Below are positions 3,903 through 57,087 of a stretch of DNA of 64,000 nucleotides, piece after piece. The notes under the pieces were generated by a model. That model saw only the letters and a list, made by a program, of their open reading frames with translations. It ran no database searches and had not been told where the DNA came from. Position 1 is the first letter of the stretch; each line of letters starts with the position of its first letter. A program made the position numbers and the translations under genes. This DNA comes from Candidatus Hydrogenedentota bacterium (lineage in GTDB: Bacteria > Hydrogenedentota > Hydrogenedentia > Hydrogenedentales > SLHB01), in the NCBI GenBank assembly GCA_034408725.1, contig JAWXCN010000032.1, positions 20,453 through 84,452 on the forward strand, read 5' to 3'.

Positions 3903-4475
3903 ATGGGGCGCCACACGGTTCAATTTAGTTGTCATCACTGCAACCATTGCTGTACGGAAGTGATTTGCCTTCCGACGCCGTGGGACGTAATCCGTATTGC
4001 GCGGGATACGGGTCAAGACCCGTACAAGTTTCTCGACTTCGTCACTCCTGAAGACATTGACGAAGTCGACGAATTTGATCCGACTTGGTTATACGTCGGC
4101 GACCAGCGCTATATGATGGCGCTGCGCCGCTACGACCATGGCTGCCACTTCCTCGACAAGAAGACGAAGTTCTGCACGATTTACGAATCGCGCCCGATCC
4201 TTTGCCGGTTGTATCCGTTCAAAGTAACAGAGTTCCGCGATGGAACTTTCAAAGGGTTCACGTTGCACGATGACGTAGGGTGTCCACGGCACCGGGACGG
4301 TTCAACGCCGGTAAAGCCACTATATGAACTATATATGCAGGACACTGAGCACCAGGAAGATTACGAGTCGCTTGTCAAGGTATTCAATCAAAAGGACCAT
4401 GCATCGAAAAAGCCCGAGGACTTCATAGGGATGTTTATCGTCAAAGACGTCGTGGCCGGCGCAGTGCGGGTTTGA
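3903..4475 (+). CDS. YkgJ family cysteine-cluster (CxxCxxCC) protein
   Basis: 'FSCHHCNHCC' ... 'CHFLD...CTIYESRPILCRLYPF'. Confidence 0.85.
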   Translation: MGRHTVQFSCHHCNHCCTEVICLPTPWDVIRIARDTGQDPYKFLDFVTPEDIDEVDEFDPTWLYVGDQRYMMALRRYDHGCHFLDKKTKFCTIYESRPILCRLYPFKVTEFRDGTFKGFTLHDDVGCPRHRDGSTPVKPLYELYMQDTEHQEDYESLVKVFNQKDHASKKPEDFIGMFIVKDVVAGAVRV

Positions 4476-4560
4476 TTGGATTTTGTGATTCTACACGACC
4501 CGGCCGTTTGCGTAAAATGAACAGAATCAGCACTTTATGAATGTATTCGCGTATTTTCGT

Positions 4561-4589
4561 TTGACTTCACCCCTACCCCGTGCTATACT
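4561..4589 (+). promoter_or_regulatory. Sigma-70-type promoter upstream of the M23-bactofilin operon
   Basis: TTGACT-17 nt-TATACT with extended -10 TGn. Confidence 0.65.
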
Positions 4590-4720
4590 CCGCAAACTTG
4601 GTGGGAATCCCTAGGGTGGTATTCGGGGATTACAGACAGCGGGATTAGCCATTTGACTGTAACGGAATGCTGTGTGGCCCTTGTCCCCTGCGTTGTTGTG
4701 ATGAGCTCGGAGCACTTTTA

Positions 4721-5752
4721 ATGAAGCGCTGGACGGTTATGCTCATTCCCCATGGGCAGGGGAATACCAGAAGCCTGAATCTTTACTCGATGCAGTTATA
4801 CGTCTTGGTATCGGCGTTTGCCGTACTGGCGTTTACCGCAGCCTACACCTATCAATCCGCCCGAATCGCAAGCAAGGACGTGGAGCGGCTCGAACGCGAG
4901 AAACGCGCGCTTGGAGCGATGGCGGCCCCGCTAACGCAGCACCCCACGGCAATTTTAGCCGATGACGAACGCCTGACCATAGAGCAAAAAGTGCGCGAGG
5001 AATACGAAGGGCGCATGGTCGCGATTACCAGCGAGCTAAGCGAGCTCTATGACGTCGAGAAGAACTTCCGCAAGAACAACGGGTTACCGCCGCGCACGAA
5101 GACCCCGGCGGAATTTGTTGAGAATGTCAGCGCGGAACAGGGTGGAAAAGGTGGACCTCCCGGGTCCGATCCGGGGGACGACGCGCCATTGGCAAATGAT
5201 GCGCTGGTACGGCCACCATCGGTGATCGATGGGCTGGCGAATCCGAGCGCGGACCTCATCGTTCAGGAAATCAACATCCGCACGGAGAGCCTGCGGGAAT
5301 ACAACGAGTTGTACCTCGCGGCAAGCCAGGCCAAGAAAGAAGAAATTGATCGCACGCCGGGCATTTGGCCGGTCTCCCGCACGAAACGATCAATAGTCAC
5401 ATCACGGTTTGGACACCGCAAGGACCCATTCACACGGGACCTTAGTTTCCATGACGGGCTCGATATCGGCGCGCCGTATGGCACTTCGATTATTGCAACG
5501 GGCAAGGGGACCGTTATATCCTCGGGCTGGGACAAGTACCTTGGGAACCATGTCCGCATCGATCTTGGGGCGGGTATGGTCACGGTATACGGACATATGC
5601 AGAAAACGACGGTATCAGTTGGCGAACTCGTCGAGAAGGGCACGGAAGTTGGAAAGCTCGGCAGCACGGGACGCAGCACGGGCGCGCATTTACATTACGA
5701 AGTTCGAATCAACGGCAAGTCGGTGGACCCTGAACGCTACCTTGTCGAATAA
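4721..5752 (+). CDS. M23 family peptidoglycan metalloendopeptidase with N-terminal TM and coiled coil
   Basis: 'TSRFGHRKDPF', 'FHDGLDI' (HxxxD), 'TVYGHM', 'GSTGRSTGAHLHYEVR' (HxH); GGAG RBS before ATG 4721. Confidence 0.92.
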   Translation: MKRWTVMLIPHGQGNTRSLNLYSMQLYVLVSAFAVLAFTAAYTYQSARIASKDVERLEREKRALGAMAAPLTQHPTAILADDERLTIEQKVREEYEGRMVAITSELSELYDVEKNFRKNNGLPPRTKTPAEFVENVSAEQGGKGGPPGSDPGDDAPLANDALVRPPSVIDGLANPSADLIVQEINIRTESLREYNELYLAASQAKKEEIDRTPGIWPVSRTKRSIVTSRFGHRKDPFTRDLSFHDGLDIGAPYGTSIIATGKGTVISSGWDKYLGNHVRIDLGAGMVTVYGHMQKTTVSVGELVEKGTEVGKLGSTGRSTGAHLHYEVRINGKSVDPERYLVE

Positions 5753-6281: not shown

Positions 6282-7388
6282 ATGACAAATTCAAAACAAA
6301 CAAATTCAAAGTCCCAGCGCCGCGTGCTTGTCGCGATGTCCGGCGGAGTGGACAGCTCTGTCGCCGCGGCCTTGCTCGTCGAGCAGGGCTACGACGTCGT
6401 GGGCATGACCATGCGCGTTGCGTCCGGCGAAGGCCGTGAGGTGTCGGACAAAGCCTGTTGCACACTGGATGCCGCACAGGATGCGCGCCGGGTCGCCGAC
6501 AAACTGGGCATTCCGCACTACGTTATCAATTACGTGCAGCGGTTCGAGCAGGAGGTCATTCAGGACTTCATCGGCGAATACCTCGCGGGCCGCACGCCGA
6601 ACCCGTGCTCGCGGTGTAATCAGCGCGTGAAGTTTGGCGCGCTGTACGAGAAGGCGCTCGCCATTGAAGCGGACGCAATCGCCACGGGACATTACGCACG
6701 GCTTGAGCGGCGCGGCGATCGTGTCGCGCTGCTTCGCCCCGTGGACAAGAACAAGGACCAAAGTTACACGCTTTCCGGTTTGGGCCAGGCGCAACTCGAA
6801 CGCGCAATGTTCCCCTTGGGCGAAATGTCGAAGGAGCAGACGCGCACAATTGCGCGATCGTTGGGTCTCGTTACCGCGGACAAACCGGAGAGCATGGAAA
6901 TTTGCTTTGTGCCGGGCGACGATTATCGCCGGTTTCTGGCGACGCGCGTGCAGGCTCCCACCGCGGGCCCCATCGTGAACTTGCAGGGAGAACTGGTTGG
7001 CCATCATTCCGGCTTGGTGAACTATACCGTGGGTCAGCGAAAGGGCCTCGGCATTGCCGCGGCCAAGCCGTATTACGTCGTGAAACTCGACATGCAGCGC
7101 AACGCATTGGTCGTCGGGCATGATGATGAAGCAACCGTGGGCGGATTGGCAGCAAGTCAGGTGAGTTGGTGCGCGCTTCCGCCGCAAACTGATCCCTTCG
7201 ATTGCTTCGTGCAGATTCGGTACAAGAGCGCGCCCATTCCATGTACGGTGACGCCAGGCGCGGATGGTTTTTCCGTCGCGTTCCACGTCCCGCAACGCGC
7301 TGTCTCTCCTGGGCAATGGGCGGTGCTCTACGACGGGGACACCGTGCTGGCGGCGGGGATTATTGATCGGCCCGAGGTCGGCGGGTAG
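6282..7388 (+). CDS. mnmA: tRNA 2-thiouridine(34) synthase
   Basis: 'VAMSGGVDSSV', 'GRTPNPCSRCN', 'IATGHYA', 'KDQSY', 'YTVGQRKGLGI', 'AVSPGQ'. Confidence 0.97.
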   Translation: MTNSKQTNSKSQRRVLVAMSGGVDSSVAAALLVEQGYDVVGMTMRVASGEGREVSDKACCTLDAAQDARRVADKLGIPHYVINYVQRFEQEVIQDFIGEYLAGRTPNPCSRCNQRVKFGALYEKALAIEADAIATGHYARLERRGDRVALLRPVDKNKDQSYTLSGLGQAQLERAMFPLGEMSKEQTRTIARSLGLVTADKPESMEICFVPGDDYRRFLATRVQAPTAGPIVNLQGELVGHHSGLVNYTVGQRKGLGIAAAKPYYVVKLDMQRNALVVGHDDEATVGGLAASQVSWCALPPQTDPFDCFVQIRYKSAPIPCTVTPGADGFSVAFHVPQRAVSPGQWAVLYDGDTVLAAGIIDRPEVGG

Positions 7389-7389
7389 C

Positions 7390-8082
7390 ATGTATTCTAC
7401 CGAAGAAAACGAGTATGCCGACGAATCCGAGATGCTTGAAATCAAGAGCAATGCTCCATTGAACCGCAGCCTGCGCAAAGGACATCGGGACGCGGCGGAA
7501 AAACGAGGGCGTTACGCTGGACAACCTATAGATTTTTCTACCCACCCTGTAATCGTATCCGTGAGCTTGAACGCGGCGCATTGCATCAGCAAACAAAACC
7601 AGCCAAGCATTCGTCTCATGACTGGCCTCGGTGTCGAAGGCGACGCGCATTGCGGCGAGACGGTCAAGCATCGTTCGCGCGTCGCGCGTGATCCAAGCCA
7701 ACCAAACTTGCGCCAGGTGCATTTGATTCATAGCGAGCTGCACGACGAATTAAGGAAAAAGGGTTTCGAAATTCTTCCGGGGCAAATGGGGGAGAACATC
7801 ACCACGCGCGGGATTGATTTGCTGGCGCTGCCGGTCGGAACAAAATTGCGCATTGGTGATTCCGCCGTTGTCGAGATTACCGGCTTGCGCAATCCCTGCT
7901 CGCAGCTTGATGGACTATATGACGGGCTCATGGTCGCGACAGTGCGCCGCGCAAAAAACGGGGACCTCATTCGAAAGGCGGGGATTATGGGCGTTGTGCG
8001 CGCAGATGGGGAAATCCGCCGCGGCGATTCAATTCGCGTTGAGCTTCCCGCGGAACCACATCGTCCGCTCGCTCCTGTCTGA
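7390..8082 (+). CDS. MOSC domain protein
   Basis: 'GLGVEGDAH', 'NLRQVHLI', 'PGQMGENITT', 'TGLRNPCSQL'; start codon uncertain. Confidence 0.85.
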   Translation: MYSTEENEYADESEMLEIKSNAPLNRSLRKGHRDAAEKRGRYAGQPIDFSTHPVIVSVSLNAAHCISKQNQPSIRLMTGLGVEGDAHCGETVKHRSRVARDPSQPNLRQVHLIHSELHDELRKKGFEILPGQMGENITTRGIDLLALPVGTKLRIGDSAVVEITGLRNPCSQLDGLYDGLMVATVRRAKNGDLIRKAGIMGVVRADGEIRRGDSIRVELPAEPHRPLAPV

Positions 8083-8087
8083 ATTCC

Positions 8088-8807
8088 ATGATTCGAGCCG
8101 TGCTATTCGATGCCGCCGGCACCTTGTTGCATATTCATCCTTCCGTAGGCGATGTCTACGCCTCCGAAGCTGCGTTGATGGGTGTCAACGTATCCGCGCA
8201 TGCATTGAATGATGCGTTCAAAAGCGCGTGGGGGAGTCTCCGGCCACCAGACGGCGCGTCGCCGTTCCACACCTCCGAATCGGTTGAGCGTGAGTGGTGG
8301 CGAAATCTTGTCCGGCAGGTTTTTGGCGAAGCCGGCGTGTTGGATCAATTTGGCGAGCAATTCGAACTTTTTTTCGACGCGCTATACGAAAGATTCGAAC
8401 AGCCCGGCTGTTGGCGGCTGTATGACGATGTCATTCCCGCGTTGGATGCGCTTGACGCGAGAAGGGTACCGTTTTCTATCGTTTCCAATTGGGATTCACG
8501 TCTTCCGCGATTGTTGCGCGCGATGGGAATCGCGGAACGCTTCCGATTCATCCTGACTTCCGCCGAAGTGGGCGTCAGCAAACCCGATGCCGAAATTTTT
8601 GCGCAGGCAGTTCGCAGATTGGGGTTTCCAGCCAGCGATGTGCTGCATGTGGGTGATTCAGTCGAGGAAGATTTAATGGCCGCGCAACGCGCCGGGCTTA
8701 AAGGCGTGTTAGTCTCGCGCAGGGAAACCATTCCGGCCAAACACGGGGCCATTGGAAATTTGTTGCAGATAATCAATGTATTGGAGGCATCCATAGCGAC
8801 GCCTTGA
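8088..8807 (+). CDS. HAD-IA family hydrolase (REG-2-like)
   Basis: 'VLFDAAGTL', 'VSNWD', 'KPDAEIF', 'HVGDSVEED'. Confidence 0.9.
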   Translation: MIRAVLFDAAGTLLHIHPSVGDVYASEAALMGVNVSAHALNDAFKSAWGSLRPPDGASPFHTSESVEREWWRNLVRQVFGEAGVLDQFGEQFELFFDALYERFEQPGCWRLYDDVIPALDALDARRVPFSIVSNWDSRLPRLLRAMGIAERFRFILTSAEVGVSKPDAEIFAQAVRRLGFPASDVLHVGDSVEEDLMAAQRAGLKGVLVSRRETIPAKHGAIGNLLQIINVLEASIATP

Positions 8808-48374: not shown

Positions 48375-48983
48375 TACGCCCTCTCCCGATTTCAGTGAGG
48401 GAACATTATACCCAATGGTACCGCAGGCATTTAGTAGCGCCGCAATTGCCAAGGGCGGCGGGTGTAGCGCTGAATTCCGATTCGGCGCGTGCCGGAGAGA
48501 ACGACCACATCAGGTTCGAGCGAGTGAACATGTTCAATAACCCGGACCGCAAACAAAGCACCCCAGTCGCATCCTCCGCGCCACCGACTCCGGAGCACGC
48601 CGCGTTTGGCAAACGAGGCGCTACCTGGGAATGCGCGCAGTCCCACGCTCCAAATTTGCGTGGAGTCTTATTCGTGCTGATGGGTCATTCCTTTATAGAT
48701 TAGGCCGAGACGTTGCAGTGGGGTTGGAAATTAATTTAAGGGGTATTTATGGATTTGCGTAGAATGGACTGACACGGACTGATATGGACAGACACGGACA
48801 AAATGAATTGGGTTCGGGATGTTCGGCACCACCATTCAACCGTCCGGCCGCGACTGGAACACATAGGCGACGCGCATCGGGCTTGGTCGACCTTCCGACT
48901 GCGCCGAATCGGAATTCAGCGCTACATGGTTGCTCTCAAACGATACTTTACCTATCATTGATCAATTAGGAGGCTATCCGCCC

Positions 48984-49202
48984 ATGGACGTTGTCATACC
49001 GCTCGACAAAATGTCGGTCGCAGAAAAATTGCGCGCAATGGAAGAGTCCTGGGACGACCTTCAACGCGGATCGGGCGAGGTACCCTCGCCTGCCTGGCAT
49101 GAAGACATTCTCCGCGCTCGAGAAAACCGCGTCAACGAAGGTGTGTCCAATTATGCTGACTGGTCCGAAGCAAAAGATAGGATTCCTCGTCAGACCCAAT
49201 GA
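48984..49202 (+). CDS. Addiction-module (TIGR02574-like) antitoxin
   Basis: 'IPLDKMSVAEKLRAMEESWDDL...PSPAWHEDILRARE...DWSEAK'; GGAGG RBS. Confidence 0.82.
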   Translation: MDVVIPLDKMSVAEKLRAMEESWDDLQRGSGEVPSPAWHEDILRARENRVNEGVSNYADWSEAKDRIPRQTQ

Positions 49203-49273: not shown

Positions 49274-49593
49274 GGCCACAGGACTGCACCGCTCTCACGC
49301 GAGCGAGACACTACTTTGCAGCCCGTTATCTCCGGTATAGCGACTGCGCGACATGCGTTTACCGTAGGTCTACCTATGTTACGCTGATCTCCGATGGGGA
49401 ATTTTTTGATCGAGCCGTGGGTATCGGTCATGCATGCGCCGAATCGGAATTCAGCGCTACATCAGTGGGATTGGAGATTATTTGAAGCGGAATTTATGAG
49501 TTCGTGCAAAATTGATGAACATAAATGGAAGAGGAGTGCACCTAGCAGGGTGGAAACAGAAGTAATAAAGTTTTCCAGAGAGCTTTTGCGTTT

Positions 49594-50655
49594 TTACATT
49601 TCTCGGTTGGCAAAACTTATCTCGAAAAATTTATCCAAGTCAAGCCGATAAACCCGTCTGCAGCCACTTGTGTATTGTTCGGGATGTGCGAACTCACGCG
49701 GTGTGGGATAGGCAATAGTAATGTCGTCCATAAATGCGCGAAAAATACCCACTGCAACAGCCTGCATTTTACTGCCGGTGGGCGCTACTATAATTCGCTC
49801 AAATTCGCCGTGCGCGTTGTATATATTTGAAAGGTTATCAATGGTCTCACCGTATTCCAATGTGCTGGCATAAAAATCCTCTCTCGACGCCAAAGAATTC
49901 GTGTTATTCAATTCTTGAATCGCCTTTAATCGCCATATATTTTCCTCCGCTGGAGGAATTCCATGAATCAAAGTAATTGCTGATGGCTGAGTTTCATTTC
50001 TTAGTGCTGATAGTTGATCAACATTGAAAGAGGGGAAAAATACTAATCTCGTTGGTTGTCCTTGAAGTGCGACGGACGACAATTCCGGTATAATGGCAAC
50101 TTCAATCACGCCCTTTGACAGAAATAATATATCATAGGGATTATACCCCCTGTCGGCAATTCTTCTGGCAACCTCTTTTTGATCAGGCGGGTACTTTTCT
50201 GCTTCGGTATAGATAACAGTGCAATTGCTAAAGCCCATCGAATGCTTACCGACAGCCGCTAAAATCTGAACAATGAGCAATTTCGACATTGCAGATATAT
50301 CAATGAATAAACGCCCTTTGCCGGACCTGATACTTTCAAGAAGTTCTTCGCCGAACCACGCTGGATCTTCTCTATCGTAGACTCCTGACATATTATTTAC
50401 GGCACGGTTATCCGCAAAGAGTTCTATCTCTGCAGATCTATTTTGAACCAGACTGGGAGAGTAAATGATTTTAAACACCGTGATATCGTTTGGGCACTTC
50501 GTCGCGACCAAACTTGGTACATAGTGAGCTCGATCCTCAAATCCGGCGCAATAGACAAGCTCGTCGCCTGGCTCAAGAGCCAAGTCAGCAATAGAAGTGA
50601 GGCGGGGCTTGTCAACCTGGCAAAGCAACTGGTCGATTCTGAGGACAGTATGCAT
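49594..50655 (-). CDS. Hypothetical protein, possibly tandem CARF-like Rossmann domains
   Basis: 'CAGFEDR...LFIDISAMSK...VIYTEAEKY' and 'LVFFPSF...IIVAPTGSKMQAV...IAYP'; TAA-ATG coupling to the upstream gene. Confidence 0.65.
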   Translation of the reverse strand: MHTVLRIDQLLCQVDKPRLTSIADLALEPGDELVYCAGFEDRAHYVPSLVATKCPNDITVFKIIYSPSLVQNRSAEIELFADNRAVNNMSGVYDREDPAWFGEELLESIRSGKGRLFIDISAMSKLLIVQILAAVGKHSMGFSNCTVIYTEAEKYPPDQKEVARRIADRGYNPYDILFLSKGVIEVAIIPELSSVALQGQPTRLVFFPSFNVDQLSALRNETQPSAITLIHGIPPAEENIWRLKAIQELNNTNSLASREDFYASTLEYGETIDNLSNIYNAHGEFERIIVAPTGSKMQAVAVGIFRAFMDDITIAYPTPREFAHPEQYTSGCRRVYRLDLDKFFEISFANREM

Positions 50656-53154
50656 TTATATATCCTCTTCTTTAGTATCAGTAAACTCCAATTGCACGTC
50701 ATCGGTGCCCATCCGAACGGATGGCCCATACTCCGAAAAAGGTTTGCGAAGGCGATAGGCATCCTCAAATTTATTTGGATTGAGTAAAAGGCCTTCAATT
50801 TCGCTTGGTTCTAACTCAACCGAATCTCTCCGACTAAACGTGAGGCCAAAATGTGGAAGTAAGCATCGACGCAAATACAAGCGGGGAACCACTTTGCCGC
50901 GTCGACTTTTTCCACGCGGATCTTCAATGAATAAAGAATATCGAAGCAACTCTCTATAAACGCTCAACGCCTCTTTTCCTAAATTTAAATCCTCATATGG
51001 TTCGATTCGAGATGCCAAATAGGGTGGCGATGAACTTTCATTCTTGCTGTCCCGAAACTTAAGATAGGAAAAGGCGACAACTGCGAACGCGGTCACGACA
51101 TGAACTAAATGCTCGCCGTTGCTAGTGCCGCGCAAACCCTGCAAAAAACTCCCAGCTTCAGAGCGAATTGCATCGGCTTGTATCTCCTTCCGAAGTTTCG
51201 GTACTGCTGGCGATGTTTTAAGGGCAGACGCTCCTCCGGCGTCCTCGATCATGCGGCCAACCAGTCCAATCAGATAGAAAACATCTCCGCTACACAATTC
51301 AGAAAGTGAATGTCGGCCCCAAACGTTAAGTTTTTTGTCGTTTCTGATGGCACGTGCTATATCGTTGTAGCTCCTTGAGTCTGACTCTCCTAGAAGCTCT
51401 AATAGAGTTTTAACAGGATATCCTTCGACGGCACCAAATCTTCTTGCAAACACATCTTCAATAAAAGCCAATTTTTCGTCTGGCTTAGCATGCAGAAAAA
51501 CAAGACCCAAGTTTAATAGCTGAAACTCACGTCCTTCAACGTATGATTTCCCGTCGATATCGGAACGCGCGTACGAAACGGGGCTTTCAGTAGAAAGTTT
51601 AAAAAAACAACATGATGTTCGCTGCATAAATAGTCTGTTAAGATTCTTTTGCAAATCGAGGGTGATCTTGGGCATCGAGTAATCATCAACAAAGAAATAA
51701 AATGGGCGGTTATCAAGGCTCGGAAACTGCCTTAGAATCGCAGCGCACACAGTAGGCAAGATATCTGGACCCCAAAGGCCTTCCATTGGGTGGTCATAGG
51801 TAAATCTATGTTTTAATCTAGCGCGTTTACGCTGCTTTGCCATAGCAAACTTTAGCGCTTCGAAAGTATTGCCACTTGGTTCAGTTATCGGATTTAGCTC
51901 AAGAAGTTTCAACAAATCGGAAGTCAGCTTTGATTCCAATTCCCGGAATTGGTCGGGAAAACTGACACTGGTCCATTGTTCAATTGTTTCCAATACCTGT
52001 GAAATCAGAGTGGCCGATATGAAGTGCATGGGTAAATCTATCGCTTCGGTTCTCGAAGGTATTTCGTAACGTGGAAATGTTCCGTACAAGTCATCGCATC
52101 GATAGTAAATGCCAATATACGGAATGGTCGACAAATACTCGTCGCTTACCAATAATCGGTGCTGTAAGCTAAGACTCTTGAAGACAGTTGTCTTTCCACA
52201 GCCTCTAGGTCCAGTTAGTACCAAATTATTCCTATCTTCGATTTGGGTGACGCCTAGAAATTTGTTCGAATAAAGGGATCGCAATAGGCCATGGGAATCT
52301 CCTATTTGTTCACAACTCAAATAGTCGAACGGACTCGATAGGGAAACTTTCGTTTTTACCTGAGCCTCGCGGTGAAACGCCGTTGGGATATCTAGGAGTT
52401 TATGGTAAAGACCTTCGGGATTGCGGGCCAATTGATCGCGCGTGCGATCCCTTTCAGTCAAATGCCGAGCCAGAAAATGCGTATTTAGGACGTTATAGGT
52501 GTATCTTTCGAGTGGACTACAGTCTTGATAGTTAATATTTGCAAGGAGTTCCTGTAAGATGAGAGCCGTCTGATCATAATCGTCGCGGGCTTGGGACTCG
52601 CTCGTTGCTGATGTTACACCAAAGTCTGTTACGCGTATTCGATAATCCGGACCACCGAGTTGGCCAGTGCAATCTTCTACGAGAACATTCCCAGCGTGTA
52701 TATCACCATGCCGAACGTGCATTTGTTCCATGTTGTGGAGCAACGCGAACATTGCCTTTAAAAAGTCCTCTATGAAGCCAACGCGGATCTGGTGCAGATG
52801 CTGTTTAATATACTCGCGTAGATCGATGCCTGGAATATATTCAAAGAAAAGAAGAACACAATCTATATCGTTTGCTTCATCGAGCCAGGCCGTCATGGTT
52901 TGGAATCGTACCGCCACTGGCGTACTTAAGATGGCAACTTTTCGTATTTCGTCGAGCCATTGCGATTCTTGAGCATTGACAAGGTTCACACGAGGAATTA
53001 TTTTGCAAGCGACGGTATGTGAAGTGTTGGTGGCGAACGCTTCAAACATTAGTCCATTTAGTCCACTTTTAATCAACCGTACAATTTTATAGTCGTCGCG
53101 ACCCGGTATCGTGTGTTGTAGAAAAAATTCCGGTTTTGGAAGATTGCGTTTCAT
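50656..53154 (-). CDS. Ser/Thr protein kinase domain fused to an ORC/Cdc6/STAND-like P-loop ATPase
   Basis: Kinase: 'IKSGLNGLMF', 'VACKII', 'FEYIPG', 'HGDIHAGNVLV', 'TDFG'. ATPase: 'SPF', Walker A 'GPRGCGKTT', Walker B 'FYFFVDDY', 'FFKLSTE'. Confidence 0.85.
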   Translation of the reverse strand: MKRNLPKPEFFLQHTIPGRDDYKIVRLIKSGLNGLMFEAFATNTSHTVACKIIPRVNLVNAQESQWLDEIRKVAILSTPVAVRFQTMTAWLDEANDIDCVLLFFEYIPGIDLREYIKQHLHQIRVGFIEDFLKAMFALLHNMEQMHVRHGDIHAGNVLVEDCTGQLGGPDYRIRVTDFGVTSATSESQARDDYDQTALILQELLANINYQDCSPLERYTYNVLNTHFLARHLTERDRTRDQLARNPEGLYHKLLDIPTAFHREAQVKTKVSLSSPFDYLSCEQIGDSHGLLRSLYSNKFLGVTQIEDRNNLVLTGPRGCGKTTVFKSLSLQHRLLVSDEYLSTIPYIGIYYRCDDLYGTFPRYEIPSRTEAIDLPMHFISATLISQVLETIEQWTSVSFPDQFRELESKLTSDLLKLLELNPITEPSGNTFEALKFAMAKQRKRARLKHRFTYDHPMEGLWGPDILPTVCAAILRQFPSLDNRPFYFFVDDYSMPKITLDLQKNLNRLFMQRTSCCFFKLSTESPVSYARSDIDGKSYVEGREFQLLNLGLVFLHAKPDEKLAFIEDVFARRFGAVEGYPVKTLLELLGESDSRSYNDIARAIRNDKKLNVWGRHSLSELCSGDVFYLIGLVGRMIEDAGGASALKTSPAVPKLRKEIQADAIRSEAGSFLQGLRGTSNGEHLVHVVTAFAVVAFSYLKFRDSKNESSSPPYLASRIEPYEDLNLGKEALSVYRELLRYSLFIEDPRGKSRRGKVVPRLYLRRCLLPHFGLTFSRRDSVELEPSEIEGLLLNPNKFEDAYRLRKPFSEYGPSVRMGTDDVQLEFTDTKEEDI

Positions 53155-54359
53155 TTTTTCTTAAGAACCAATATTCGTTCTTGGCGCGTACCTGCGCAGT
53201 CTTTTCTGGAGCGGCGTATGTCGGGGATGTTGTCAAGGAACGAATGCTGCAAAGTTAACGAAGGCGCGAATTGTGCGAAAATGGCAAGCGTTATGTCGCT
53301 TGGATGTAATGTACCTCTTCGAGTGACGGTTTCCCCAACAATAAGAACACAGTGTCCATTGGAAACCAAACCTCTTTCTGCACACGCAGCTAACTTTTGA
53401 ATCGCCTTGCGAAAATCGTCTTCGTTCCGGGTCATACTATTATCTGTAACGGTCTCGGCATCTTGTGTCAAGAACCATAGGCGCAGGCGATTATCTCGGA
53501 CATAATCCAGCGCATTCATATAAGGCGGACTACTCACGATGCAGTCAAAACTCTGCGGGAAGGCCAAGGCGCGTATCTCGCTGCGGCGAATCGTCCATTT
53601 TGGTATTTGTCGTGGAAGTTTCATTCGTTTATAAGCGCGAGTGATCTTTGCATGCATCCGCGGCACGATTTCGCGATACTCGTACAAGTCGGGATGTTGT
53701 TCGCGGGGAAATCTTACGTTGCGAAGGTATGGTACGAGATGACTGCTCGGGTATGATAAAAAACCTGGCCTTTGGTGGTGCAGGATGCCGAGCAAGCAAG
53801 CTAGTGTGAAATGGTCTCGCTTTTTCCTGCAAACTGTCGCAAGCCGAATCGCACTCTTAAGGGTACGCGGGTGAAAGAAACGCCGCACCCAGATGGGAAC
53901 TTGTCGTAAATCTGGTTCCGGAAGGAGTAATGATTCGCTATAAGCACAATCGAAATTTAGAATCGCCGATTGAAGATTTATAGGAGCTGCTAGCTTGGCG
54001 CAGGTAAGTACGGTCGCATATTGGCTTACGTCCGATGCGAATATACGCCGTCCAAGTCGTATAGCTTCAAGTGGTATGGTTCCCGCGCCGCAAAACGGAT
54101 CGACGATGAGATTTCCATTTTTCGTATACCTGGAAATTAGGTCCGAAGCAATGGAACTTTTGAGTTTTCCTATGTATGGGGATAGTTGATGCAAGGTGCA
54201 TTCTGAATTTGCACATGAGTCGCTCCAATGGCGCGGAGCCAATTTAGTCTCTGATTGACGGGGTTCAGATTGTGTTTTTAACGGCTTTTTTTTCTCGTAT
54301 ATCTGCGCAGTGCCAATTGTTGCCGTTGCTTGGTTGTATTTCATACGCATGCTTTTCAT
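53151..54359 (-). CDS. Amino (N4-C or N6-A) DNA methyltransferase, motif I before motif IV
   Basis: 'LHQLSPYIGK', motif I 'IVDPFCGAGT', motif IV 'IVSSPPY...DY'; ATGA overlap with the kinase gene; start uncertain (54359 or 54434). Confidence 0.85.
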   Translation of the reverse strand: MKSMRMKYNQATATIGTAQIYEKKKPLKTQSEPRQSETKLAPRHWSDSCANSECTLHQLSPYIGKLKSSIASDLISRYTKNGNLIVDPFCGAGTIPLEAIRLGRRIFASDVSQYATVLTCAKLAAPINLQSAILNFDCAYSESLLLPEPDLRQVPIWVRRFFHPRTLKSAIRLATVCRKKRDHFTLACLLGILHHQRPGFLSYPSSHLVPYLRNVRFPREQHPDLYEYREIVPRMHAKITRAYKRMKLPRQIPKWTIRRSEIRALAFPQSFDCIVSSPPYMNALDYVRDNRLRLWFLTQDAETVTDNSMTRNEDDFRKAIQKLAACAERGLVSNGHCVLIVGETVTRRGTLHPSDITLAIFAQFAPSLTLQHSFLDNIPDIRRSRKDCAGTRQERILVLKKK

Positions 54360-55123
54360 TATAACCCCCAATAAGTTAACACATGAGGTAAGCCCTTCGC
54401 GAGGTCGGCCGTTAAAATGAATAACCTTGTGCAACGCCCCGGGCTATTCTGTAGAGGCATTCAACAATGAACACTACAGACACCCGACCACTTGACGCCC
54501 GAGCCATCGCCGATCCCTTGTCCCTCCCGACGCATCTCCGGGAGCAGTTCGAGCGCCTGCGCGCCGATCGTGGGCCCAATGCGGACAGCGGGACGCCGTC
54601 TGTCCGTTGCACGCCCCTCGGCACACCCTGCTCCCGGTTGTGGGATGAGGTTCGGCGCGTGTGCGATCCTCCATTATGGCCATCCGCACCAATCGACTGA
54701 AACGGCACAACCAGAATCACACGCCGACACTTGGCCACCCCCTTGCACCCCAGCACCCAGGCTCCCTGTCCATTGCTTCAACCTCCGAGTGCTAACCTCA
54801 ATTCAATCTTCGACTTGCCCGGAATACCGCACGACGCTCATGCTCGTGGCGGGACGCTACACCCCCCCTTGTATCGTCAAAAAAAGTTTTGTACACCCCC
54901 TCAAACCCTCTTGACCTCCGCAATCCGTCGCGCTTCACGCTGCCGTGTACTGCAACAGACTGGGCGAATGAGTAAAGGCGCATAGCCAATCACGAGCAAC
55001 GGCTGGTCGCCATTTACATGATTCGCTATTTTCCAGCATAACCCTTGATCGATTACGATTACGCCCGCGCGCGGGGGTATAACGCGCACACGAAGCGGAA
55101 GGTTAGCCAGGGGAAAAGCAAAA

Positions 55124-55882
55124 ATGAATCCTGCGAAAGTTGTCGGCATTATTCCATCACGATTTGGTTCTTCCCGGTTGCCGGGAAAGCCGTTAAAACC
55201 AATTCGAGGTAAACCGATGATCCAGCGCGTTTATGAGCGCGCGAAGCTTGCGCGGCACCTGGCGCAGGTCACCATCGCTACCGACGATGAGCGCATCGCG
55301 CGCGTGGTGGAAGCATTCGGCGGTACATACGTGATGACGTCGCCGGACCATCCGAGCGGCACGGATCGCCTCGCGGAGGCCCTTGACCAGATTGACGCGG
55401 CTATCGTCGTCAACATTCAGGGGGACCAGCCGTTTCTGGACCCGATGATGATCGAGGAGGCGGTGCAACCCTTGCTAGACGACCCTGGCCTGAACATGTC
55501 TACCCTGATGCACCCCATCGCGCGCGAGGAAGATTTGATCGATCCAGCAGTTGTAAAGGTCGTGACAAATTTGAAAGGCGATGCGCTGTATTTCTCGCGG
55601 TCACTAATCCCATATCCCCGGCAGGACGCCGGGCAACGGGTTTATGAACACGTGGGCTTGTACGTGTATCGCGCGGAGTTCCTGCGCAGGATTGCGGCGT
55701 TGCCGCCTACACCGCTAGAGTTGACGGAGTCGCTTGAGCAATTGCGTGTGCTCGAGCACGGGTATTCGATTCGCGTGATCGAAACCAAGGTGCATGACAA
55801 CGCGTTCAGCGGTTTCAGCGTGGACACCGAACAGGACCTCATGCGCGCCGAAGAAATGCTGATCGAGCGGGGAATGGAATAA
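55124..55882 (+). CDS. kdsB: 3-deoxy-manno-octulosonate cytidylyltransferase (CMP-Kdo synthetase)
   Basis: 'IPSRFGSSRLPGKPL', 'SGTDR', 'NIQGDQP', 'ALYFSRS.IP', 'HVGLYVY', 'ESLEQLRVLEHG', 'VDT'. Confidence 0.93.
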   Translation: MNPAKVVGIIPSRFGSSRLPGKPLKPIRGKPMIQRVYERAKLARHLAQVTIATDDERIARVVEAFGGTYVMTSPDHPSGTDRLAEALDQIDAAIVVNIQGDQPFLDPMMIEEAVQPLLDDPGLNMSTLMHPIAREEDLIDPAVVKVVTNLKGDALYFSRSLIPYPRQDAGQRVYEHVGLYVYRAEFLRRIAALPPTPLELTESLEQLRVLEHGYSIRVIETKVHDNAFSGFSVDTEQDLMRAEEMLIERGME

Positions 55883-55884
55883 AC

Positions 55885-57087
55885 ATGCCGATAGACAGCG
55901 CCGCGCTGGACACGCTGGAAGCTGATCTCGATCACGTTGTACGCGAACGCATCCACCGGACCGCGGACTTGATTGTTGCCGCGAAAGAGCGCGGGCGCAA
56001 CGTCGCGGTAATCACGGGGAGCGGCCCGAACATTCACGAAGGGGTCACCACGCTGCTCGCCGAGTTGATGCGCGTTGGCATCGTGGATGGCATTACGACG
56101 AGCAGCGCCGTCATCGCGCACGAGATGGGGGGCACGCTCGATCGGGTGAAGCGTTGCGCGGGCGAGCCATTGGATATCGATCCAGCTTGGCTCCCGCGCG
56201 GTGGGGATTTCGAATTGACGGAACTCGATCCCGCGGCGCTAGCGGAGATCGAGATGCAAATGCCGATCGACCACGCGCTGATTGAAAGGATCAAGTCTGC
56301 GCCCGGTAAAAGCATTATCAAGGCCGCCGGAAATCTTGGCTATCCGATGGGGTTGTGGCTTGAAAAATTTGCAATCGAGATTCTCGCGTTGGCGCATGTC
56401 CACAAAAAATCTTTCGAGGAGATAGCCGGACTTGGCGCGGATGCGCGCACGATGATCGGCATTGGCGCGCGTGCTCGGAAGCCCGTCATGGTGACGATTC
56501 CGCAGCTTGTCGGCGGCGGAATGATCGGACTGTGCATTGGTGACAGTATTTCGCTGGTTGAACGCGCCACGCGACTTGCACACATGCTCGATGCCGCGGA
56601 TGTGATCATCGAGTCCGGCGTTGCGCTCACGCAAGAGATTCACGACGGGCCGTTCGAACTCTATACCGGCCACGGCATTTGGTCCGCGTGGCAGGACCAT
56701 TTTGCGTACACCCTCGAGGGCAAATCCTTGATTCGCATTGATCTCGATCCTGCGTTGGAACAGGTCTGCGCGATTGAACGCGAAGCTGGAGGGGTGCAGG
56801 AAGCGATCACGGACGGGCTACCGAAAACAAAGCTGTTCAAGGTGCCGTTTCGCATGGAAATGTCCGGCTTCGCGCGGCACGAAGGCAGCATTCCAATCAT
56901 CGAAGACATCGGGGTCGTATGGCCGCTCATCGCGCGGCGGGTCGCGTACAAGCTCGGTATAGAACTGGATTTTATGTCATACCCCCAGCAAACGCGTCCT
57001 GGTATGGCGATGCGCGAATGGATTGTCAGCGAGGTCAGGCCGATGAGCCGTTCACGCATGCTGAAAGCGCTGCATGAACGCGATTGA
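55885..57087 (+). CDS. Hypothetical protein, possibly a deoxyhypusine-synthase-like (DHS-like NAD-binding) fold
   Basis: 'VAVITGSGPNIHEGVTTLLAELMRVGIVDGITTSSAVIAHE' resembles DHS-like N-termini; operonic spacing on both sides. Confidence 0.6.
   Translation: MPIDSAALDTLEADLDHVVRERIHRTADLIVAAKERGRNVAVITGSGPNIHEGVTTLLAELMRVGIVDGITTSSAVIAHEMGGTLDRVKRCAGEPLDIDPAWLPRGGDFELTELDPAALAEIEMQMPIDHALIERIKSAPGKSIIKAAGNLGYPMGLWLEKFAIEILALAHVHKKSFEEIAGLGADARTMIGIGARARKPVMVTIPQLVGGGMIGLCIGDSISLVERATRLAHMLDAADVIIESGVALTQEIHDGPFELYTGHGIWSAWQDHFAYTLEGKSLIRIDLDPALEQVCAIEREAGGVQEAITDGLPKTKLFKVPFRMEMSGFARHEGSIPIIEDIGVVWPLIARRVAYKLGIELDFMSYPQQTRPGMAMREWIVSEVRPMSRSRMLKALHERD

Follow-up and report, generated by a model that had tools for sequence, protein, structure and literature searches.

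What is a protein kinase with a very short activation segment doing on the same polypeptide as a P-loop ATPase? The question is raised by an 832-residue open reading frame (ORF), here called the kinase-ATPase, in a 64,000-nucleotide stretch of DNA from Candidatus Hydrogenedentota bacterium (assembly GCA_034408725.1, contig JAWXCN010000032.1, positions 20,453 to 84,452 of the forward strand); we refer to this whole stretch as the window and give all coordinates in its numbering. An earlier note, prepared from the sequence alone, had described the protein as a kinase activated by ATPase-driven oligomerization rather than by phosphorylation of its activation loop, comparable to an NLR/STAND protein with a kinase effector. 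That note missed the genomic context: the functional unit is a three-gene cassette, in which a DNA methyltransferase gene precedes the kinase-ATPase gene and a tandem-CARF gene follows it. The cassette is a widespread, defense-like system that looks like anti-phage immunity, and on balance we favor the view of the kinase-ATPase as central subunit of a methylation-linked cassette that was acquired horizontally and operates by the mechanism proposed below.

The motifs listed in the earlier note were each found in the 832-residue translation, namely KSGLNG, VACK, HGDIHAGN, DFG, SPF (within SSPF, residues 273-276), GPRGCGKTT (residues 315-323), FFVDDY (residues 487-492) and the basic RGKSRRGKVVPRLYLRR. 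The profile scan that it had proposed gave matches above the Pfam cut-off for both enzymes: Pkinase (PF00069) matched residues 22-196 (5.5e-13; 49.4 bits against a cut-off of 31.7), covering profile positions 1-160 of 263 only, and the ORC-CDC6-like family (PF24389) matched from residue 302 (8.5e-39; 134.2 bits against a cut-off of 27), with both halves of the profile represented (positions 26-318, 103.9 bits; positions 417-571, 30.1 bits). The cassette is single-copy in the source genome. Its family comprises 786 proteins at E<=1e-3 among 8000 candidates scored, and 715 representatives match among 1.84 billion clusters formed at 50% identity. All 120 family proteins listed combine a kinase family with PF24389, and their lengths span 790-847 residues, save for two fragmentary entries of 755 and 789 residues.

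Across 55 aligned sequences, the most distant at 21% identity, kinase residues G31, K51, E69, H149, D151, N156 and D177 were invariant, as were D192, the Walker A residues G318, G320 and K321, and the Walker B residues D490 and D491. Since the catalytic residues of both domains are invariant, the kinase and the ATPase both look active. The non-RD designation held, with HGD in place of HRD and catalytic residues that do not vary. The catalytic-loop Lys is replaced by His153, giving a loop of the form HGDxHxGN. The KSGLNG Gly-loop, although present, proved to be this protein's own variant of a family consensus, GSGxN(A/G), in which only G31 is invariant.

The activation segment was likewise as short as had been noted. 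ARDDYDQTALIL occupies residues 189-200 and begins 9 residues past DFG, the gap from G179 to D191 is 11 residues, and no APE motif follows. Using a regular expression, we found a DFG-to-(D/E)D(Y/F) gap of 11 residues in 63/105 family sequences, of 10-14 residues in 6 more and of 27-32 residues in 3, the other 33 being more divergent sequences that returned no match; [AS]PE was present 10-35 residues past DFG in 3/105. As judged from these sequences, such a short activation segment is characteristic of the family. The family profile matched solved Hanks-type kinases, with Stk1 (4eqm/9ymt) at 7e-28 and also ULK1 and PknA/B, and these alignments reached just past DFG and no further. An ESM Atlas model of residues 3-275 superposed on Pkinase clusters of bacterial Ser/Thr kinase domains with template modeling (TM) scores of 0.72-0.78 over 228-251 of 275 residues. 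The nearest feature clusters were kinases of 224-251 residues, some of whose members also match Kdo or APH, and clusters that pair nSTAND1 or AAA_16 with a kinase were structural neighbors. The model depicts a compact, bilobal kinase that appears to lack a peptide-binding platform. RIO and Bud32 kinases are likewise not known to carry such a platform. Taken together, these findings describe an apparently active non-RD kinase, devoid of activation loop, P+1 loop and APE motif and fused to an ORC/Cdc6-STAND-type P-loop ATPase.

The ATPase module carries the P-loop signature GxRGxGK[ST] that was present in 9/9 PF24389 ATPases examined. In the ESM Atlas, residues 271-811 superposed on standalone PF24389 proteins of ~600 residues (a 603-residue cluster) with TM scores of 0.78/0.74 over 520 residues. 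Near residues 735-765, a pattern of helix, strand, basic loop and strand is kept across PF24389 subfamilies; this pattern, which includes RGKSRRGKVVPRLYLRR, would fit a wing. The comparison with NLR/STAND proteins stood in part. Comparative genomics, discussed below, backs the idea of an NTPase switch with a kinase effector, but little spoke for the classical NLR/STAND form: neither NB-ARC nor NACHT rose above the Pfam threshold in the kinase-ATPase, nSTAND3 reached 15.6 bits against a cut-off of 27.2 and in the P-loop region only, and no repeat family of the kind that serves as a C-terminal sensor (TPR, WD40, LRR) was matched at E<=0.1. PF24389 is rare, exceeding its cut-off in 6/135 genomes of the phylum and in 7/401 sampled Acidobacteriota, a tally that includes the unpublished genome G186.

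The gene upstream of the kinase-ATPase encodes a DNA amino-methyltransferase whose reading frame extends upstream of its ATG as far as a TTG at 54434; homologues are ~375-400 residues long. Motif I precedes motif IV, a circular permutation of beta-class N4-cytosine/N6-adenine (N4C/N6A) DNA methylases, and SPPY was invariant in 22/22 homologues. The closest solved relatives were the N4-cytosine DNA methyltransferase 8s9n (2e-8), TTHA0409, MboIIA, DpnA and RsrI. An RNA or protein methyltransferase was considered and ruled out: matches to UPF0020/Trm14 were weak and confined to motif I, the solved relatives are DNA N4C/N6A methylases, and sister cassettes use DNA methylases of four families.

The downstream gene encodes a protein without a Pfam match. 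It matched the PADLOC CARF6 model PDLC01917 (CARF6--CARF_CARF_CARF) at 5.8e-21, and an AlphaFold2 (AF2) model was obtained with a mean predicted local distance difference test score of 90.6 and a predicted TM score of 0.93. The best structural match of the model was Can1 (6sce_A; Z 14.1, 240 residues, root-mean-square deviation 4.9), followed by Card1 (Z 12.6) and Csa3 (Z 11.9), then Csm6, Can2, Cam1 and Cad1; when the alignment was used as a sequence profile against the PDB, it returned nothing meaningful. The invariant residues GFE.R, D119/M123/S124 and P.G.K.Q lie just past beta1 and beta4 of both domains, a region in which CARF domains bind ligand.

The three genes are translationally coupled, the TGA stop of the methyltransferase gene overlapping the kinase ATG as ATGA and the ATG of the CARF gene directly abutting the TAA stop of the kinase-ATPase. 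We surveyed 77 loci from public genomes. A CARF homologue lay downstream of the kinase-ATPase in 73/77, the other 4 being cut by a contig end, and a methylase homologue lay upstream in 68/77, with 8 of the other 9 cut in the same way. Pairwise distances across 50 loci correlated between kinase-ATPase and CARF protein (r=0.94) and between the methylase and each of these (r=0.77-0.78); 0/999 permutations reached these values, to which shared descent contributes. The hosts belong to Acidobacteriota, Verrucomicrobiota, Nitrospirota, Myxococcota, Desulfobacterota, Planctomycetota, Chloroflexota and Actinomycetota, together with Gammaproteobacteria, several candidate phyla and three Bathyarchaeia, and the family is patchy over >15 phyla and archaea at 33-57% identity. 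One member comes from a cultured host, the myxobacterium Citreicoccus inhibens M34 (locus L010). In a gammaproteobacterial metagenome-assembled genome (L069, 6001-9386), the kinase-ATPase match spans ~3.4 kilobases (kb) versus 2.5 kb and the ORF breaks after ~589 residues, a pattern that suggests insertion into or disruption of the gene.

In fused forms of 1219-1237 residues, the kinase-ATPase and CARF parts follow each other on one chain as their genes do. One of these (P0259, 1219 residues) matches the kinase-ATPase first (1e-42) and the CARF protein after it (2e-17), a second (P0233) also aligns to both window proteins, and no relative longer than 1457 residues was found. The two fused loci that were fetched from the metagenome scan (L078 and L079) both lie directly downstream of a methylase gene of the window cassette's family (2e-94 and 6e-88). 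A further fused gene of 1237 residues (L112, G273:C1:327000-342000) has, where the methylase is usual, an upstream 404-residue protein without a family match, which adjoins genes for an HNH endonuclease and a GHKL (HATPase_c_3) ATPase.

A conserved fourth cassette gene was looked for and rejected, since the commonest flank family occurred in only 9/60 loci; the leading families were an extra methylase (9), helicases (8), DUF1156 (5), ThyX (4) and YhcG nuclease (4). The gene for ThyX, a thymidylate synthase, is attached to the cassette upstream of the methylase in its 4/60 kinase-type loci (L010, L011, L054 and L061) and also occurs in one non-kinase sister locus (L108), and a dUTPase gene heads the PRTase-type locus L107. 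These neighbors point to a recurrent link of the cassettes to thymidine and dUTP metabolism.

We also examined 8 PF24389 loci that lack the kinase, leaving out the partial PF24389 matches in G037 and G099 as well as genome G186. A CARF6 gene adjoins the ATPase in 7/8, and every cluster (8/8) includes a DNA methylase, drawn from the C5, N6_N4, Dam/D12 and N6_Mtase families. The effectors were TIR (fused), HD-CE (PF24391; separate, twice), PRTase-CE (PF24390; separate) and ParA (fused), and the ATPase module also occurs alone. Since the kinase shares its effector slot with TIR, HD, PRTase and ParA, it is read most simply as an output domain, and most likely is a swappable effector. Likewise, the methylase family varies while methylation persists, and its likely role, on this comparison of gene families, is therefore generic DNA marking. 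These sister cassettes share the ATPase family, P-loop signature, DNA methylase and, directly downstream in 7/8, CARF6 partner with the window cassette, which differs from them in its effector, a kinase fused to the N-terminus of the ATPase, and in its permuted SPPY amino-methylase, an enzyme confined to the kinase type. Two genomes, G135 (L012) and G136 (L048), hold a second, non-kinase PF24389 cassette beside the kinase type (of PRTase type and ParA type, respectively), and paralogous versions can thus coexist in one genome. In L111, an ISL3-family transposase (7019-8722, plus strand) interrupts the ATPase gene, leaving the CARF6 and methylase genes intact.

In the source genome the cassette has the features of an acquired island. 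Its guanine-plus-cytosine (GC) content is 0.45-0.46 across 50-54 kb compared to ~0.56-0.58 in the flanks, where housekeeping genes lie on both sides. In 40 relatives, of which 4 share its genus, 20 its family and 16 its order, no full-length homologue was found, and one genome of the same GTDB family, whose compared contig equals that of a Hydrogenedentales metagenome-assembled genome, carries a copy only 57% identical. Among the public runs listed as containing the sequence there was no RNA run. The region 50648-57000 is bridged by contigs from 4 DNA runs, of which none makes a join across the island, a result that is silent on expression and on island-less strains; in that comparison the joints between public contigs fell only at a dispersed 26-nucleotide repeat. 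This element, TGTAGCGCTGAATTCCGATTCGGCGC, stands just downstream of the cassette at 48463-48488 (plus strand), 48901-48926 (minus) and 49436-49461 (minus); it has 22 genome copies at <=2 mismatches (reversed control, 0) and resembles a dispersed host repeat of the repetitive extragenic palindromic (REP) or miniature inverted-repeat transposable element (MITE) kind. Between its copies, a 72-residue ORF (48984-49202, plus strand) matches PF09720, 'putative addiction module component' (Unstab_antitox), at 2e-10, and no intact partner toxin was identified beside it.

Table 1. Features of the cassette in window coordinates, and gene content of the non-kinase sister loci (aa, amino acids; the last column gives the basis or content).
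Feature	Position	Strand	Basis or content
Whole cassette: methylase, kinase-ATPase, tandem CARF	49594..54359	(-)	4.8 kb in total
DNA amino-methyltransferase, 402 aa from ATG at 54359	53151..54359	(-)	motifs, solved relatives
Motif I DPFCGAGT	~54078-54101	(-)	
Motif IV SPPY	53520-53531	(-)	
Kinase-ATPase ORF	50656-53154	(-)	832 aa; stop codon 50656-50658
Kinase domain, aa 1-270	52345..53154	(-)	Pfam, alignment, ESM Atlas model
Gly-loop of kinase	53053-53070	(-)	KSGLNG at aa 29-34
K51 of VACK	53002-53004	(-)	translation
Catalytic loop HGDIHAGN, aa 149-156	52687-52710	(-)	translation
DFG, aa 177-179	52618-52626	(-)	translation
DDY after DFG	52576-52584	(-)	translation
ORC-CDC6-like ATPase module, aa 271-832	50659..52344	(-)	PF24389
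PFDYLSCE motif, N-terminal in ATPase module	52309-52332	(-)	
Walker A GPRGCGKT, from aa 315	52189-52212	(-)	
Walker B FYFFVDDY, from aa 485	51679-51702	(-)	
Basic strand-loop-strand RGKSRRGKVVPRLYLRR, aa 747-763, possible wing	50866-50916	(-)	
Tandem-CARF protein, 353 aa	49594..50655	(-)	PADLOC CARF6, AF2 model
CARF-like domain 1, ~aa 30-160	50176-50568	(-)	GFEDR at 50530-50544
CARF-like domain 2, ~aa 197-340	49636-50067	(-)	PTGSKMQ at 49762-49782
Sister locus L104			C5 methylase, HD-CE, ATPase, CARF6
Sister locus L105			TIR::ATPase, CARF6, N6_N4 methylase
Sister locus L107			dUTPase, methylase, PRTase-CE, ATPase, CARF6
Sister locus L108			N6_N4 methylase, ATPase, CARF6, ThyX (ThyX at 4033-4950 (-) of the locus)
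Sister locus L109			Dam methylase, ATPase, CARF6
Sister locus L110			HD-CE, ATPase, C5 methylase; no CARF found
Sister locus L111			ATPase split by ISL3 transposase, CARF6, N6_N4 methylase
Sister locus L113			ParA::ATPase, CARF6, N6_Mtase

This class of cassette is already catalogued, in Makarova et al. 2014, in the PADLOC 'CARF6' models and in Pfam families PF24389, PF24390 and PF24391. The relevant passage of Makarova et al. 2014 (PMC4012209) describes a fused family consisting of a Zn ribbon, an S/T/Y kinase, an AAA+ domain with a P-loop arginine, CARF and a winged helix-turn-helix, for which kinase-mediated signaling is suggested. It corresponds to PADLOC-DB model PDLC01925 (CARF6--CARF_STK_AAA, 1187 positions). 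The domain set, its order and the GxRGxGK P-loop agree with the description in that passage, and the two window proteins together cover the model: the kinase-ATPase matches over residues 12-649 (1.1e-24; model positions up to 672) and the CARF protein matches the C-terminus (model positions 877-1179). Unlike the fused family as described there, the CARF part is a separate gene in the window, and Pfam found no Zn ribbon. As far as that passage goes, the description is computational only and does not include the methylase partner.

Of the systems compared, phage growth limitation (Pgl) of Streptomyces coelicolor, a type 2 bacteriophage exclusion (BREX) system, is the nearest tested analogue. According to passages of Hoskisson et al. 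2015 (PMC4365076), Pgl comprises the PglX methylase, the PglW kinase, the PglY ATPase and PglZ, needs methylase, kinase and ATPase activities, and is proposed to involve a kinase-to-methylase signal; a passage of another paper places BrxC/PglY in the ORC/Cdc6 clade (PMC12839542). To the extent that these passages describe it, Pgl resembles the window cassette in uniting DNA methylase, protein kinase and a P-loop ATPase of the ORC/Cdc6 clade while having no dedicated restriction nuclease. In contrast to Pgl as so described, the window kinase and ATPase form one polypeptide, a CARF protein is the partner, and the DNA-modifying enzyme is a small methylase from a different class. Neither the PglZ phosphatase nor a PglX-type large methylase was present among the 3 cassette proteins or the 12 neighboring ORFs scanned, and BREX models gave no match to the cassette proteins beyond a weak BrxL P-loop match.

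Other likenesses are confined to single components. Can1, a type III CRISPR nuclease switched on by cyclic tetra-adenylate (cA4; PDB 6sce), also carries two CARF domains in one chain; the window CARF protein differs in being without a nuclease domain, and no Cas10 was detected in the genome. The kinase part matches the PADLOC models of the defense kinases PD-T4-6 (3.8e-12) and mad6 of MADS (2.7e-15). This match is limited to the kinase domain, whereas architecture and partners differ, and the kinase-ATPase reaches 21 bits against a cut-off of 460 for the NCBIfam MAD6 equivalog MADS6. In the passages of a preprint (10.64898/2026.10.19.760177) on ParA-ORC/CDC6 'HINPO' systems, the ATPase is proposed to act as a DNA sensor; the ParA-fused sister form resembles HINPO, in which those passages mention neither CARF nor methylase.

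As a mechanism, we propose that the methylase would mark host DNA as self, and that the ATPase, with its wing-like basic element at the C-terminus, would act as a nucleotide-driven switch that inspects DNA. The tandem CARF domains would form one pseudo-dimeric, Can1-like pocket, so that a nucleotide-type ligand could supply a second input; since neither Cas10 nor a CD-NTase was found in the genome, a resident cyclase of type III CRISPR or of a cyclic-oligonucleotide-based antiphage signaling system (CBASS) would not be its source. Upon a trigger, the ATPase would change state or assemble and thereby release the N-terminal kinase. Because the kinase is of the non-RD type and lacks an activation loop, it would need no loop phosphorylation. 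Once released, it might phosphorylate host or phage proteins and halt the infection or the cell, in place of a nuclease. A more specific version is one that we hold tentatively, as possible rather than probable: a two-input switch that reads DNA methylation through the ATPase wing and a nucleotide alarm, for example phage-made or damage-derived, through a CARF protein that has no cyclase, with interchangeable effectors, here a loop-less, constitutively competent kinase freed by ATPase assembly. If so, the cassette would be a restriction-modification-like system that answers by phosphorylation and not by DNA cleavage.

Several observations weigh against the preferred view. No phage-challenge or other experiment on the cassette emerged from a literature search, which did not take in the 2020 CARF census, a source that may describe the family further. 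The 92%-complete genome contained neither Cas10 nor a SMODS cyclase, and the CARF ligand may not be a cyclic oligonucleotide. A kinase without the P+1 loop and APE peptide platform is not assured of a protein substrate. For the ATPase part, a sequence profile compared against PDB chains matched P-loops only, the ORC/Cdc6 assignment being drawn from the Pfam model and ESM Atlas leads. With regard to linkage, locus L018 has room upstream yet no methylase match, and the upstream neighbor of the fused gene at L112 is not this methylase. Recognizable defense genes flank the cassette in a minority of loci only, and there were none among the window neighbors. We list here as well that no relatives were found in the viral contigs scanned, a result that is neutral.

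The features that make the kinase domain unusual could also be read as those of a minimal kinase in the style of RIO, Bud32 or APH, serving as an ATP-driven switch or acting on a small molecule or nucleotide, possibly to make, modify or destroy the CARF ligand. The missing activation loop, P+1 loop and APE motif would suit such an enzyme, as would the HGDxHxGN loop with its His where Ser/Thr kinases have Lys, the weak Pfam matches to ABC1 (5e-5), Kdo (0.03) and APH (0.047), the Kdo/APH matches of part of the nearest ESM Atlas cluster members, and a genome in which no cyclase for the CARF ligand was found. However, the best matches in both sequence and fold were to Hanks-type protein kinases, Pkinase exceeded its Pfam threshold while APH and Kdo fell below theirs, the domain resembles the protein kinases of PD-T4-6 and MADS, and its place in sister cassettes is taken by TIR, HD and PRTase, which are effector domains of typical kinds; we think this reading unlikely. 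An ordinary cellular signaling kinase of the AAA-fused Ser/Thr type, with no role in conflict with mobile elements, would be in line with how common bacterial Ser/Thr kinases fused to STAND/AAA_16 NTPases are, and with the nSTAND1-kinase and AAA_16-kinase clusters among the structural neighbors. It is at odds with the low-GC island not found in the 40 relatives, the patchy spread over >15 phyla and archaea, the strict association with DNA methylase and CARF genes, and the match to a PADLOC defense-candidate model, and can hardly be the case.

The preferred view, in which the kinase is the output, must also be set against one that reverses the roles. As in Pgl, or in an addiction module, the kinase-ATPase might regulate the methylase, which would then be the real toxic or restricting activity. 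The requirement of Pgl for methylase, kinase and ATPase and the kinase-to-methylase signal proposed by its authors, as the passages of PMC4365076 present them, provide a precedent, and the methylase is unusually conserved along its full length, including the stretch between motifs I and IV, and co-varies with the other two genes. Yet sister cassettes keep the ATPase and CARF protein with at least 4 unrelated methylase families, which generic self-marking fits better; TIR, HD and PRTase domains in the position of the kinase do not regulate by phosphorylation; and no PglZ-like partner was present among the cassette genes or the window neighbors scanned. Such a reversal is, in our judgment, an improbable account of the cassette.

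If the cassette is an immune system, then it would be a compact, widespread module, spanning numerous bacterial phyla as well as Bathyarchaeia, that couples epigenetic self-marking to a kinase output and to a CARF sensor belonging to neither CRISPR nor CBASS. It would make testable what CARF domains sense without a cyclase, how a kinase lacking an activation loop switches on, and how ORC/Cdc6-like ATPases read DNA in defense, the last of which bears on the mechanism of BREX. The sister cassettes, with their swapped effectors, would provide natural controls.

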